From: Verrucomicrobiota bacterium
GTDB lineage: Bacteria; Verrucomicrobiota; Verrucomicrobiia; Limisphaerales; JADLHS01
NCBI GenBank assembly: GCA_037044975.1
Contig: JBAOIL010000025.1
Coordinates: forward strand, 502-64,501
Direction: 5' to 3'
Length of the DNA: 64,000 nt
Numbering within the stretch: the stretch's first letter is position 1; each line of letters opens with the position of its first letter. Below are positions 3,058 through 6,941 of the stretch, piece after piece. The position numbers and the translations under genes are program-made. Under the pieces are notes generated by a model. That model was not told the origin of the DNA. It ran no database searches and saw nothing but the letters and a program-made list of their open reading frames with translations.

Positions 3058-3181
3058 GCGCTGAAGGCGCTACGGAAATCAGCCCAGGGTTGTGAGGAAC
3101 GAACTACCCTGGGTAAACGTCCCCAAAATAATTCCCCCCTCTCCTCGCCGAACGAGGAGAGGGCCGGGGTGAGGAGTCGAA
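3058..3181 (+). repeat. left copy of a structured 124-bp REP-like repeat flanking the low-GC cassette
   Basis: Reverse complement of 6813-6941. Contains two hairpins: cccagggt..accctggg and ccctctcctcg-ccgaa-cgaggagaggg. Confidence 0.85.
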
Positions 3182-3254
3182 ACCGTTGCGTTGAGCGCGC
3201 GAGGGGTTTGGTTTAACATCGCGCAAATTTCCGTTGCGCTGATTCAGTCGCCGC

Positions 3255-4223
3255 ATGAACGATGACACTACAGAGTTAAGCAACCCATTCTCCACAGGTG
3301 GAGGCGGAACGAATTTTGAAAACCAAGTTCAATCCGCCTTTGTCGTTTTGATGTTAACTGGGGGCGTAGTTCCTTGTCTGGGGCCTTGGCCCATCAAAAA
3401 AATCAAGCTGCAGGGAAAATATGAGGGATACAACACAGATGACTTCATCGCGTTTGTTGAAGAGAAATCCGGACAGAAGGCAAGACTCTTGGCGCAGATT
3501 AAACACTCTGTTGCGATTACCGAAAGCGACAAAACTTTCAGTCAGGTAATTCAAGCGGCGTGGAATGACTTTCAGAATCCCGAGTGTTTCGATCCCCGAT
3601 CTGACATCATTGCTCTCATCACAGGGCCGTTGAGCGCCCATGATATCGAGAACGCACGAATCATTCTCGAACGAGCAAGGCATTCTGAAAACGCAACGGA
3701 GTTTCTTAAAAAGGTCAGCCGCGCGAAGTTTAGCAGCAACGAGCAGCGCGAAAAACTGGATGCATTTCGCTCCCAACTGAAGAAGGCAAACGCAGGGAAG
3801 GATGTGAGCGATCATCAATTGTGGAATTTTCTGAAGCGTTTTCACCTACTCGGTTATGACTTGGATATTGAATCTGGCGTCACGCTTTCGCTGTTGAATT
3901 CACATATTGCACAGTTTGACTGTGGTGACATCTCCGGTCTGTGGGGCAAAATTTCAAAGCACGTCGGTTCTTCCAATCAGAATGCGGGAACAATTACCCG
4001 CGAAACAATCCCTGACGAAGTCAAAGCCGCATTTTCAAAACGTGTGTCAGTTGTGCAGATTCCCGAACGACTGCTGAAAAAGAAAAAGGCCGGGGAGAAG
4101 AAACCAGTTTATCCAACCGGGGATAAAGCAAACGCGCTGATGTATGCAACGCTGCTTGGTTCATGGAGTGACAAATCCGAAGGCGACATGGATGCGATCC
4201 AAAAACTGATTGAGCGCAAATGA
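3255..4223 (+). CDS. hypothetical protein; the N-terminal motif order suggests a PD-(D/E)xK-type nuclease module (cassette protein A)
   Basis: 322-aa ORF in AT-richer DNA with GGGGTNFENQVQSAFVVLML, then TDDFIAF and LLAQIKHS. Its stop overlaps the next start (ATGA at 4220-4223). Confidence 0.75.
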   Translation: MNDDTTELSNPFSTGGGGTNFENQVQSAFVVLMLTGGVVPCLGPWPIKKIKLQGKYEGYNTDDFIAFVEEKSGQKARLLAQIKHSVAITESDKTFSQVIQAAWNDFQNPECFDPRSDIIALITGPLSAHDIENARIILERARHSENATEFLKKVSRAKFSSNEQREKLDAFRSQLKKANAGKDVSDHQLWNFLKRFHLLGYDLDIESGVTLSLLNSHIAQFDCGDISGLWGKISKHVGSSNQNAGTITRETIPDEVKAAFSKRVSVVQIPERLLKKKKAGEKKPVYPTGDKANALMYATLLGSWSDKSEGDMDAIQKLIERK

Positions 4224-5227
4224 TCAAAAGCCGAACAGAATGGATTGAGTCACTGCAGGAGATTTCGCTGCTCGCTGATTCTCCCATCAAGCAAAAGAAT
4301 GGCAGCTGGGAGATTTCCGACCGCAAAGAAGCTTGGAAGGCAATTGGACCGAGAATTTTTGACGAACATTTGGACCGATTTCACAAAGTTGCAGTCGCAG
4401 TTCTGAGGGAGCGTGATCCTCGCATCGAATTGGATGAGAATGAACGCCTAACGGCTGACTTGCGGGGTAAACAGTTGAAGCATTCGCCTCTCCTACGCAA
4501 GGGATTGGCAGATACGCTGGCGCTTCTGGGAACCGCGCCCAAGGCACTGAAATCGTGCTCACATGGTAAAGCCGCGGTCGTTCCCGTTCTCGCAGTTCGG
4601 GAAATTCTAAATGGCGCGGATTGGGTTTTGTGGGCGAGCCTCAACAGCTATTTGCCGACTTTAGCTGAAGCAGCGCCGGACGAATTTTTGGATGCGGTCG
4701 AGAGAGCTATTGCTCAGGACCCGTGCCCGTTTGTTCATGTTTTTGCTCAAGAGAAGGCTGGCATAATGGGCCAAAACTACATGACCGGACTCTTATGGGG
4801 GCTTGAAACTTTGGCTTGGTCTCCAGATTACCTTCAAAGAGTGACTGTAATCTTGGGCGAGCTTGCTGCCCTTGACCCCGGCGGCAATTGGGCTAACCGA
4901 CCAGCGAACTCATTGACAGAAATCTTCCTGCCTTGGTATCCGCAAACGTGCGCTTCGATTTCCAAGCGCAAAGCGGCCATCAAAGCTCTTTTGAAAGAAC
5001 AGCGTGAAGTCGGATGGAAGCTGCTGTTTTCATTTTTGCCGCAGGTTCACAGTTCTTCGTCAGGTTGCCACAAACCTGCCTGGCAGAAATTCATTCCCGA
5101 GGGCTGGTCGGACAAAGTCACCAACGGCGACTATTGGCAACAAGTCATAAACTATTCTGAACTGCTGGTCGAAGTAGCCGCTGCAGATTCACACAAATTG
5201 GCTACGTTGGTCGAACATCTCGCATAG
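4220..5227 (+). CDS. hypothetical all-helical protein (cassette protein B, probably the N-terminal part of a larger disrupted gene)
   Basis: 335-aa ORF translationally coupled to the upstream ORF; no nucleotide-binding or catalytic motif recognised. Confidence 0.7.
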   Translation: MIKSRTEWIESLQEISLLADSPIKQKNGSWEISDRKEAWKAIGPRIFDEHLDRFHKVAVAVLRERDPRIELDENERLTADLRGKQLKHSPLLRKGLADTLALLGTAPKALKSCSHGKAAVVPVLAVREILNGADWVLWASLNSYLPTLAEAAPDEFLDAVERAIAQDPCPFVHVFAQEKAGIMGQNYMTGLLWGLETLAWSPDYLQRVTVILGELAALDPGGNWANRPANSLTEIFLPWYPQTCASISKRKAAIKALLKEQREVGWKLLFSFLPQVHSSSSGCHKPAWQKFIPEGWSDKVTNGDYWQQVINYSELLVEVAAADSHKLATLVEHLA

Positions 5228-5504
5228 TCTACCTAAGCCGTCATTCGACCGTGTGCTTGATCGTCTGAAATCGGATAAAGTCGTCACGCTGGCCAGAGCC
5301 TGTGCGCTTGGCAATCTGGGAGGCACTGATGAATCTCACTGGCAAACATCGGCGATATCCCGACGCAGCTTGGGTTATGCCCGCAGAGCTGATTGCAAAA
5401 ATTGAGAGCTGCGGCACAGATTGCGCCTGAAAAATGCACACTTGCTGCCATCACAGGTTGTTCTCGGAGCAAGACTATGAGCTTATTGATGACGCAAAAA
5501 ACTT

Positions 5505-6809
5505 ATGCAGAAGAAGAAAAAGAAACTTAGTCGAAAAAGACAGGCTGCCGTTCTTGAATTGTTGAAACTGGATGGTCTCACGGGTTTGTTAAATTTTGCG
5601 CGACAGGTTGCGCGTCCTGGAACTGTTGGCCTTGCGCTTGGCAATGTTGAGTGTAAAGAAGCTGACGACGCGTTGCTTCCAAAATACTTGTGCTCTGAAG
5701 ATAAGGTTGTCCGCGACTTCGTGGGTAACTTTGTCTGGGGCAGATATTGGTCACGAGGCTGGCCGTGGGTGGAAAGTCTGATCACAGACAAATGGACAAC
5801 TGAGCAGAAGGTTGCTCTTTACACATTATTGCCGTTTGGTTTTGAGACTTGGCGGCGGGCAGAAGCGTCGCTTGGTCAGAACTCCGGAAAGTTTTGGCAG
5901 ACAGTTAATCCACAACCTTATGGGCCAGAGCAACCGCACTTGGTGGAAGCTGTCGAGAGATTCTTGAAGCATGGGCGACCGCTCGCTGCTTTGGTCTGCT
6001 TGAATCGGCTAGCTCACACAAAAGCTGAATTCGCTCCGGAGCTTGCAGTTCAAGCGTTGATGGAAGGCTTAAAGGAACTGCCAAGCGGCTTTGATCACCA
6101 TGCGATTCTCGAACTGATTCAGTGGCTGCAAGATAATCCCAAGACCAATCCTGATGACCTTTTCAGAGTCGAGTGGGCCTACCTTCCGTTGCTTGATCAT
6201 CATTTCGATCGGTCGCCAAAAATTCTCGAAAAACGGTTGGCGGAAAAACCGGAATTCTTTTCCGAATTAATCTCGGTTGTATTTCGGCCGGAAGGGGAAA
6301 CTCGAAAAAAAGCTGAACCGACTGAATTGGAACAAAAGATCGCCACGAACGCATACCGATTGCTTCACAATTGGCAGCAACCACCCGGCTCGACGCAGGG
6401 GGATGCATTTGATGGACAGGAATTCTCGAAATGGCTTTCCGAAGTAAAAACGAAAACCAAAGAGTCTGGCCATTTTCGAATTGCAATGAGTCAGATTGGT
6501 CAGGTCCTTGCACATACGCCTCCTGACCCAGGGGGCTTGTGGATTCATCAGGCCGTCGCAGATGCCTTGAACGACAAAGATGCTGGTGAAATGCGTTCCG
6601 GTTTTACCATGAAACTGTTCAACCTGCGGGGCGTTCACGGATTCAGCGCAGGTAAAGAGGAATTGAAGATTGCAGAGGGCTACCATAAAAAGGCTGAAGC
6701 GCTCGAAGAGAACGGGTATCAGCGATTCGCGACAGCAATGCGAGAACTTGCGAAACAGTATGAGCGAGACGCCGAACGCGAAGCTCAACGAAATCCATAC
6801 GGAGACTGA
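5505..6809 (+). CDS. hypothetical all-helical protein (cassette protein C, probably the C-terminal part of the same gene as 4220-5227)
   Basis: 434-aa ORF. The 278-bp gap upstream reads as protein-like text only if the frame is changed several times. Confidence 0.7.
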   Translation: MQKKKKKLSRKRQAAVLELLKLDGLTGLLNFARQVARPGTVGLALGNVECKEADDALLPKYLCSEDKVVRDFVGNFVWGRYWSRGWPWVESLITDKWTTEQKVALYTLLPFGFETWRRAEASLGQNSGKFWQTVNPQPYGPEQPHLVEAVERFLKHGRPLAALVCLNRLAHTKAEFAPELAVQALMEGLKELPSGFDHHAILELIQWLQDNPKTNPDDLFRVEWAYLPLLDHHFDRSPKILEKRLAEKPEFFSELISVVFRPEGETRKKAEPTELEQKIATNAYRLLHNWQQPPGSTQGDAFDGQEFSKWLSEVKTKTKESGHFRIAMSQIGQVLAHTPPDPGGLWIHQAVADALNDKDAGEMRSGFTMKLFNLRGVHGFSAGKEELKIAEGYHKKAEALEENGYQRFATAMRELAKQYERDAEREAQRNPYGD

Positions 6810-6812
6810 AGA

Positions 6813-6941
6813 TTCGACTCCTCACCCCGGCCCTCTCCTCGTCCGGCGAGGAGAGGGAGAATTATTTTGTGGGACGTTTACCCAGGGTAGGTCGCTAGTC
6901 CGCTACCAACCCTGGGCTAATTTCCGTAGCGCCTTCAGCGC
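6813..6941 (-). repeat. right (inverted) copy of the REP-like repeat flanking the cassette
   Basis: Reverse complement aligns to 3058-3181 with about 5 differences outside an 11-16 nt loop region. Confidence 0.85.

Follow-up and report, generated by a model that had tools for sequence, protein, structure and literature searches.

A 64,000-nucleotide stretch of the Limisphaerales (Verrucomicrobiota) contig JBAOIL010000025.1, here called the window, contains a low-GC insert of ~3.9 kb between two inverted repeat arms at 3057–3181 (+ strand) and 6813–6942 (− strand). The interior holds two genes: gene A (3255–4223, +), which encodes an intact 322-aa nuclease-like protein, and gene B (4220–6809, +), which in relatives encodes a HEAT-like α-solenoid of ~860 aa and is broken here. 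We read the region as probably a decayed small mobile cassette, in which a candidate two-gene antiphage cargo is bounded by inverted arms of the repetitive extragenic palindromic (REP) type. This reading draws on the anatomy of the locus, the fold similarities of its proteins, the adjacency and fusion of A and B, their embedding in restriction–modification (R-M) operons, the statistics of the repeat family, and empty-site, inversion, and deletion alleles in related genomes.

Composition sets the cassette apart from its surroundings. GC content is 0.496 in the interior, 0.595 across the window, and 0.628 in the adjacent aldehyde dehydrogenase (ALDH) gene, and GC at third codon positions is ~0.5 within the cassette vs. 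0.74–0.82 in the genes on either side. The flanking genes converge on the insert, ALDH (1620–3050) on the + strand and an open reading frame (ORF) at 6997–8052 on the − strand, and A and B overlap as ATGA at 4220–4223. A preliminary description, made from the sequence alone, had noticed the AT-rich interior, the ATGA coupling, and the convergent flanks, all of which hold; its estimate of ~70% GC for ALDH was too high. It had also called the small protein nuclease-like and its partner all-helical and had recognized no described system, which agrees with the models and library searches given below. Its count of three orphan ORFs needs revision on both points: 4220–5227 and 5505–6809 are halves of one ~860-codon gene, and A has at least 571 homologues (50–87% identity) and the B family at least 6,811 cluster representatives.

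Arm anatomy, repeat family, and alleles at related loci

Each arm folds into three predicted hairpins. In the left arm these are a small GCGC(C) hairpin (3058–3070), hairpin 1 with a CCCAGGG...CCCTGGG stem and a variable tip (3082–3114), and hairpin 2, CCCTCTCCTCG...CGAGGAGAGGG (3134–3168), with GGGGTGAGGAGTCGAA on the cargo side. The right arm is an inverted copy, 88.5% identical across 131 alignment columns; a repeat finder resolved the complementarity into two stretches, one of 82 nt (89%) and one of 36 nt (97%). Folding z-scores range from −3.5 to −5.1, and no shuffled control folds equally well. Pattern and blastn searches of the 64 kb window returned no third copy, and shuffled sequence gives none (0 expected). 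The arms are thus the reverse complements that the preliminary description took them for, present in only two copies in the window, and their divergent stretch is, as it had noticed, the tip of hairpin 1; folding raises its count of two hairpins per arm to three. The length of this tip varies from 4 to ~45 nt among copies (window 3092–3106 and 6883–6906; L025, L045, and L070, where L and a number denote a locus outside the window), and most tips appear self-complementary by eye, as if palindromic extensions arise there.

A terminator scan identified the + strand hairpin at 6831–6857 of the right arm, followed by AGAATTATTT, as an intrinsic-terminator-like site 22 nt past the stop codon of B. 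The left arm, inspected directly, has the same arrangement of hairpin 2 and T-run on the opposite strand. From sequence, transcripts that run out of the cargo would meet an intrinsic terminator in hairpin 2 with AGAATTATTT. Beside the right arm lies an outer mosaic module (6943–6993, assigned to neither strand), composed of a GGCCGAGCTTCGGCC hairpin and two CACGAAT(C) repeats. This module stops just short of the stop codon of the 6997–8052 gene, is also present in L067, and recurs outside most repeat copies in other genomes.

The repeat, first described as the bracket of this one cassette, is not private to it: It belongs to a dispersed REP-like family whose pairs flank other cargo elsewhere. 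A scan of one genome per species for a conserved 27-mer of the outer end of the arm found 64 loci in other genomes, nearly all of them Limisphaerales or Pedosphaera-like metagenome-assembled genomes (MAGs) of Verrucomicrobiota, with several loci per genome. On long contigs the exact 27-mer occurs about once per few hundred kilobases. Outside the outer end, two to three CACGAAT repeats with TCAAA, a GGCCGAGCTTCGGC hairpin, or a hairpin like that of a terminator follow in most copies of L014–L077; given these further modules, the family takes the form of a mosaic resembling bacterial interspersed mosaic elements (BIMEs). GTDB records labeled uncultured Bifidobacteriaceae or Bifidobacterium (L014, L021, L045, L056, L063, L067, and L075) also carry this Verrucomicrobia-type repeat; their labels look wrong, and the ALDH gene of L063 is 86% identical in DNA to that of the window.

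Pairing within the family is strongly polar. Arm-profile pairs at the 64 loci were convergent, with outer ends facing out, in 16 cases, divergent in none, and direct in ~4 (binomial P = 3e-5); the convergent pairs lie 0.2–5 kb apart. GC was lower on the inner than on the outer side of 53 of 67 copies (mean difference −5.4 points; Wilcoxon P = 6e-9), and low-GC ORFs numbered 66/134 on the inner side vs. 29/153 on the outer side (Fisher P = 5e-8). Arm orientation tracks the borders of the cargo, not the direction of the cargo genes. This polarity of orientation and GC, together with a count of two copies in 64 kb, rejects a ubiquitous terminator REP placed at most convergent gene ends.

Several sister cassettes hold genes of defense-related kinds. 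Paired arms enclose, among other cargo, an Mrr-helicase (L014), a HerA-like ATPase (L016), at L018 an HNH nuclease and an IS200-like Y1 transposase, DUF559 (L025), a type IIG R-M enzyme (L039), an HA-repeat helicase (L052), and DUF4041–T5orf172 (L070). Among 52 inner-side ORFs—GC-filtered, and taken from 8 kb stretches picked for containing the repeat—PADLOC and Pfam found four to five type II methyltransferases, three HNH proteins, type IIG and type I R-M enzymes, two PbeA proteins, and a SMODS cyclase. The commonest PADLOC matches among 100 outer-side control ORFs were mostly UvrD/GajB-type helicases and PDC candidates, with no R-M family among them. Two further pairs are free of cargo (L073, 189 nt; L053, 430 nt).

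Alleles at related loci document gain and loss of the cassette. L011 carries the same arms and an intact A–B pair, at 80% DNA identity to the window cassette, between unrelated flanking genes. The flanks of L069 are 91% identical to those of L011, and the 4.1 kb between them is replaced by a ~70-nt palindromic scar, to which the left arm contributes its outer part and the right arm its outer 20 nt, the two being joined; judged by this junction, L069 is the empty-site scar of the L011 locus. L093 is the L011 locus with ~1 kb deleted inside B. The same arms and cassette between different flanks, and the collapse of cassette to scar, bear out the earlier proposal of an acquired unit bounded by a repeat pair. 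Exchange of cargo is visible as well: L014 and L039 have a left flank in common at 91% identity and different cargo, and L037 and L070 have a flank gene in common and different cargo.

The ALDH site itself has a longer history than the window alone would suggest. In L063 the ALDH gene is followed at the same distance by a solo arm orthologous to the left arm; next comes a stretch of ~90 nt that reads as the 3′ end of B in reverse complement (...AKGYERDAEREAQRNPYGE*), and the DNA beyond it is unrelated. By this relic the cassette stood inverted in the L063 lineage and has since been deleted, the inverted orientation being that expected from recombination between inverted arms. The cassette would accordingly have occupied the ALDH site in the common ancestor of the window and L063 already, or have been re-inserted there, and a recent insertion specific to the window genome is rejected.

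The arms might be ordinary REP or terminator elements that sit at gene ends and at borders of foreign DNA, insulate their neighbors, and take no part in cassette movement. The repeat occurs in dispersed copies that form mosaics with CACGAAT and terminator modules; it stands solo after ALDH in L063 and pairs around a housekeeping clpB in L034; hairpin 2 and its T-run read as an outward-facing terminator; and neither a target-site duplication nor a transposase was found for the cassette, all as such elements would have it. They would account less easily for L011, where arms and cassette keep their collinear order, at 80% identity, between a second, unrelated set of flanks, or for 16 convergent pairs against no divergent one, when the exact 27-mer is so sparse that chance pairs within 5 kb should be rare. 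Orientation that follows cargo borders rather than cargo gene direction points the same way. We judge this explanation unlikely and prefer arms that form the ends of a cassette.

Affinity of the arms to Acido-Lenti-1 and REP elements

At gathering thresholds, Rfam gives no match anywhere in the window. Below threshold, the outer modules of both arms match Acido-Lenti-1 (RF01687), with 27.8 bits at 6881–6942 (+) and 26.6 bits at 3057–3113 (−); both fall under the gathering score of 37 because hairpin 1 bears a 20-nt extension. The outer module aligns to the full 46-position model—a hairpin, a GGCUAAUUU linker, and a second hairpin—and the repeat copy in L014 scores 48.2 bits, above the gathering score. 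On this alignment the window arms are relatives of Acido-Lenti-1, not curated-threshold members. The inner hairpin is faintly like whalefall-1 (15 bits).

Acido-Lenti-1 was described from Acidobacteria and Lentisphaerae as a multicopy motif whose function is unknown and which in some cases lies near group II introns (Weinberg et al. 2010, PMC2864571). The arm family is likewise multicopy and without known function, but its host phylum, Verrucomicrobiota, lies outside those listed for the motif. Here, moreover, the motif acts as part of a DNA repeat bounding gene cassettes rather than a free-standing small RNA (sRNA) gene.

The repeat has the hallmarks of a REP element: a TAG head and a CCCRGGG...CCCYGGG hairpin with compensatory changes, seen across 64 loci. 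In 22 copies, paired positions 30–70 are GC in 12 and AU in 10, positions 2–14 are GC in 16 and AU in 5, and positions 32–68 are GC in 15, UG in 6, and CG in 1. Like members of the systems formed by REPs or REPINs with a REP-associated tyrosine transposase (RAYT), and like BIME mosaics, the arms are extragenic, multicopy, hairpin-forming, TAG-headed, mosaic, and arranged in inverted pairs; they differ in being composite and ~125 nt long. A REPIN consists of two inverted REPs around a short noncoding spacer, whereas the coding cargo measures 3.6 kb here and 1.2–5 kb elsewhere, and REPIN-like spacing occurs only in L073 (189 nt) and L053 (430 nt). Unlike REP/RAYT arrangements, arm pairs enclose 2–5 kb of protein-coding cargo, not a short spacer or the RAYT gene.

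A possible link to RAYT comes from relatives of the window genome. The Y1 transposase between the arms of L018 (1872–2324) belongs to a highly conserved family annotated by JGI as RayT, REP-mobilizing transposase. This gene is single-copy in related genomes, where it adjoins phosphoglucomutase (L174–L181, RAYT at 6001–6453); the 64 kb window contains no RAYT gene. In related MAGs, inverted hairpins of the form AATAGCCCAG...CTGGGTAAA(C)G lie on either side of the RAYT gene; their stems differ from that of arm hairpin 1. These hairpins have the head and tail of arm hairpin 1 (AAT[T/C]AGCCCAGGG...CCCTGGGTAAACG), in the same polarity to the enclosed gene, and one of them also matches Acido-Lenti-1, at 26.8 bits.

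These sequence similarities suggest that Acido-Lenti-1 represents a REP element, and we read the arms as putative elaborated REP units of a REP–RAYT system. Movement of the cassette may depend on RAYT; homologous exchange between dispersed copies fits the data as well, and both routes predict that target-site duplications should be missing.

Other repeat-bounded units offer further comparisons. Composites flanked by miniature inverted-repeat transposable elements (MITEs) and mobile R-M units likewise have nonautonomous inverted repeats around passenger genes, often defense genes, with cargo-free versions comparable to L053 and L073. Here the ends are structured and REP-like, with no target-site duplication and no cognate DDE transposase found. 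An integron attC cassette is rejected, as the arms are inverted and present in only two copies in 64 kb and the cassette proteins contain no integrase domain.

The A–B gene pair

Gene A encodes an N-terminal Cap4/LmuA-like PD-(D/E)xK nuclease, a helical C-terminal domain, and a tail of ~36 aa. In an alignment of 37 homologues, E22, D62–D63, and Q81-x-K83-H84 are invariant, which is the expected catalytic pattern. An AlphaFold2 model built with these homologues (pLDDT 80.8) was compared with known structures by Foldseek; the matches, best first, were LmuA of Lamassu (E = 1e-6), HamA of Hachiman (8zue_A), CBASS Cap4, and the Avs3 nuclease domain, with E-values from 1e-6 to 1e-4 for the first three. 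The Cap4 match is partial (~250 aligned columns, TM-score 0.42). All four are Cap4-type PD-(D/E)xK effectors of defense systems. On this model A would be a DNA nuclease effector.

Gene B persists as two open fragments on the + strand, 4220–5227 (335 aa) and 5505–6809 (434 aa), which tblastn with intact homologues identifies as parts of one gene, crossing the gap between them in shifting frames. Nucleotide alignment to the intact copies in L011 and L009 places six indels (+1, +1, −2, +1, +1, +2) in the disrupted stretch at 5225–5515 (+), within ~290 nt and none of them at a long homopolymer. Taking the sequence as given, with a single sequence over 5225–5515, B is a pseudogene in the window. 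With six indels in B, the system is probably nonfunctional here. Close relatives have decayed independently, with a split A in L008, a truncated A in L004, and the deletion in B of L093, and the breakage of these genes in the window and in close relatives implies that these hosts are not under strong selection to keep A–B. L008 (Logan SRR28161540) is a contig 99.94% identical to the window and equivalent to 3361–5013, in which a one-base indel cuts A into ORFs of 89 and 197 aa; the population contains copies broken in different genes, A in L008 and B in the window.

The B family is large. A word-indexed search found at least 2,170 homologues, and a family profile search returned 6,811 cluster representatives at E ≤ 1e-3 and 3,876 at E ≤ 1e-30. 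The closest intact homologue is modeled as an all-helical solenoid (pLDDT 87.8), for which Foldseek gives importin-β, CAND1, and other HEAT/ARM proteins as best matches.

Gene order and gene fusion both tie A to B. B follows A in 71 of 80 metagenome loci; the other nine lack a B match, and there the A match is truncated or the contig is short or ends. The A/B overlap recurs as ATGA or a similar sequence in L001, L005, L011, and L090. Among the top 150 B-family representatives, 57 are single-chain A–B fusions of ~1,180 aa with a full-length N-terminal A domain. In other members a different N-terminal module takes its place, and the last 36 aa of A are kept as a linker directly ahead of the B-like part (hhalign E = 5e-6). 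One such module is a 400-aa domain without a Pfam match (the 1,267-aa class, with a gene on a Shewanella baltica plasmid), and another class, on Rhizobium plasmids, is annotated as helix-turn-helix regulators. Profile comparison rejected homology of A to the 400-aa N terminus of the 1,267-aa proteins, the last 36 aa excepted. By these sequence criteria, A and B form one functional unit. Sensor–effector immune proteins (Avs, DSR, and CapRel-type) are usually built in this way, from a large conserved repeat domain and N-terminal effectors that can be exchanged. A fused-form homologue of 1,272 aa, WP_014615232.1, is encoded beside parAB on the conjugative plasmid pSBAL17501 of the cultured strain Shewanella baltica BA175 (L078, 7765–11583) and would be convenient for experiments.

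The pair also recurs inside type I R-M operons. Split A–B lies between hsdS and hsdM in L005 (hsdR-ORF6N-DUF1016-hsdS-[A-B]-hsdM) and L090 (hsdR-Gp49/HTH-hsdS-[A-B]-hsdM), and the fused form occupies such an operon in L006/L007 (hsdR-...-[fused]-hsdM-...-hsdS). With three probes per gene, 10 of the 80 metagenome loci showed type I R-M genes within 10 kb of A–B, always upstream, a count that is a lower bound. An hsdM immediately 3′ of B as a general rule was not seen in 28 testable metagenome loci, and HsdR probes, perhaps too divergent, gave no matches in this test. Elsewhere A–B lies among insertion sequence (IS) elements and NucS-like and Schlafen/AlbA_2 genes (L088); a Rhizobium plasmid copy has as neighbors AbiE, IS elements, and an AAA ATPase plus UvrD-helicase pair that we read as Gabija-like. 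Further copies reside on conjugative plasmids, and seven IMG/VR viral or proviral contigs (L081–L087) carry A directly followed by B at 43–51% identity. Some copies stand alone among housekeeping genes (L091).

A–B could be something other than an immune system and simply travel with defense islands, as a toxin or addiction module or as a function of mobile elements in DNA processing, such as the maintenance of plasmids or islands. Copies on conjugative plasmids, beside ParAB in Shewanella and near toxin–antitoxin systems, would suit such a role, as would the frequent decay of chromosomal copies and the fact that no known defense model matches. It sits poorly with the structural matches of A, the best of which are all defense effectors, with the repeated embedding between hsdS and hsdM, a known habit of defense genes, and with variable N-terminal modules on a conserved large repeat domain, an arrangement typical of sensor–effector immune proteins. 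We regard a nonimmune role as decidedly unlikely. A defense role for A–B is favored instead, indirectly, by its fold, architecture, and gene neighborhood and by the defense-rich sister cassettes.

Searches of Pfam, NCBIfam, and PADLOC v2 returned no significant family for A, the B fragments, intact B, or the fused forms, and sequence-profile searches of the PDB with alignments of A and B gave no match. The literature searched held nothing matching a named nuclease-plus-HEAT system or repeat-flanked defense cassettes. Comparison with individual systems gives partial likenesses. A has the same Cap4-type fold as LmuA, also with a helical C-terminal domain, but Lamassu pairs LmuA with an SMC-like LmuB and LmuC, whereas B is an α-solenoid and PADLOC finds no LmuB. 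Hachiman pairs HamA with the helicase HamB; HamA matches A structurally, but B has no helicase domain. In CBASS, Cap4 is fused to SAVED and lies beside a CD-NTase, neither of which was found as a domain here. As in all three systems, A has a large partner by which it is plausibly restrained, but B is a solenoid without an NTPase, and no family matches at the sequence level. DSR2 and Avs follow the same logic: the effector is N-terminal, the sensor is a large region of helical repeats, and effectors are swapped among relatives; A–B lacks SIR2, a STAND NTPase, and a Walker A motif, and is often split into two translationally coupled genes.

Similarity to one Avs profile offers a lead. PD-lambda-4A, now named Avs8A, combines a STAND NTPase with an Mrr nuclease, and what it senses are major capsid proteins. 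In PADLOC, residues 188–342 of B align weakly and collinearly with positions 560–746 of PD-Lambda-4_A in 5 of 13 family proteins (E = 0.004–0.04, short of significance), and fused 1,269-aa proteins match the 1,283-position profile at the same coordinates. The Walker A pattern GxxxxGK[ST] is absent from all 91 A and all 80 fused sequences and occurs in a single one of 26 B sequences, with no NTPase Pfam match, so A–B is not a STAND/Avs protein. That A–B is a diverged Avs8/PD-Lambda-4 member without an NTPase, and hence a new member of a known system, is highly doubtful despite these collinear matches and the N-terminal Mrr-type nuclease that Avs8A too possesses, given the marginal E-values, the lack of matches in Pfam and PDB profile searches, and the STAND NTPase by which Avs is defined.

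Proposed mechanism and its weight

Read as a defense cassette, the locus suggests the following scheme. By analogy with Lamassu, Hachiman, and DSR2, B would most likely act as both sensor and regulator, holding A inactive until B meets a phage-derived trigger; the helical C-terminal domain of A may serve as an adaptor. Triggered A would then cut DNA, leading to abortive infection or to cleavage of foreign DNA. The arms, each ~125 nt and built of an Acido-Lenti-1-like hairpin module and a terminator-like hairpin, may insulate the cargo transcriptionally and probably make it possible to move, exchange, invert, and delete the cassette. The means would be either a host RAYT (Y1/HUH) transposase that acts in trans or homologous exchange among the dispersed copies.

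A more ambitious combination of both halves is a tentative proposal that we hold with well under even confidence. It takes A–B, with its single-chain forms, to be a large, unnamed abortive-infection family, in which an NTPase-free HEAT-like solenoid senses a phage component and releases or activates a Cap4-type nuclease, and takes the inverted REP-type (Acido-Lenti-1) pairs of Limisphaerales to be the ends of REPIN-like cassettes that shuttle, swap, invert, and delete defense genes, possibly through a housekeeping RAYT. If both parts were true, Acido-Lenti-1, cataloged by Rfam as an sRNA, would be reassigned to a mobile function at the DNA level.

None of the parts is of a new kind: the nuclease is Cap4-type, the proposed sensor is a solenoid, the repeats are REP-like, and the motif is listed in Rfam. 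Two combinations are undescribed in the libraries (PADLOC, Pfam, and NCBIfam) and literature searched: a Cap4-type nuclease joined, by coupling or by fusion, to a solenoid that has no NTPase, in a family of thousands, and inverted REP-type arms bounding diverse defense cargo. Should A–B protect against phage, a very widespread sensor–effector system would join the defense catalog, its family comprising thousands of clusters across many phyla, plasmids, and viral contigs, and its NTPase-free solenoid would offer a simple model of trigger recognition. Should the repeat pairs mobilize their cargo, this would be, to our knowledge, the first case of REP/RAYT-type elements carrying genes; it would also explain the exchange of defense genes in a poorly studied phylum and give the orphan Acido-Lenti-1 a function.

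Several points weigh against a mobile defense cassette. The defense role of A–B is proposed from sequence, models, and context. No known defense-family model matches, the sole PADLOC hits being those to PD-Lambda-4_A, and many A–B loci have no detectable defense neighbor (L091 and most of the 80 metagenome loci). A or B is broken in the window and in several close relatives, and the cassette has been lost in L063 and L069. On the side of mobility, no target-site duplication is found at the window or L011 junctions, the cassette proteins include no transposase and only L018 has a Y1 transposase between its arms, the RAYT link is based on common hairpin head and tail motifs, one repeat pair encloses clpB, and the cargo counts come from the filtered, repeat-selected sample described above. 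The degraded state of this copy tempers interest in the finding; the window copy is a decaying relic, of value as a pointer to the family rather than as a working system.

Three minor features accompany these loci. The window ALDH gene (1620–3050) contains a low-complexity insert of ~35 aa at 2256–2370 (…RSAGGPSPAAATTATGRFDLSQAARGSGALRTGTVRAP…), unlike its L063 ortholog, which cuts the Pfam Aldedh match into two stretches. GC falls to 0.43 at 900–1200, between the 169–909 (−) gene and the region 5′ of ALDH. A thiamine pyrophosphate (TPP) riboswitch, unrelated to the cassette, scores 58.4 bits at 225–374 of L022.

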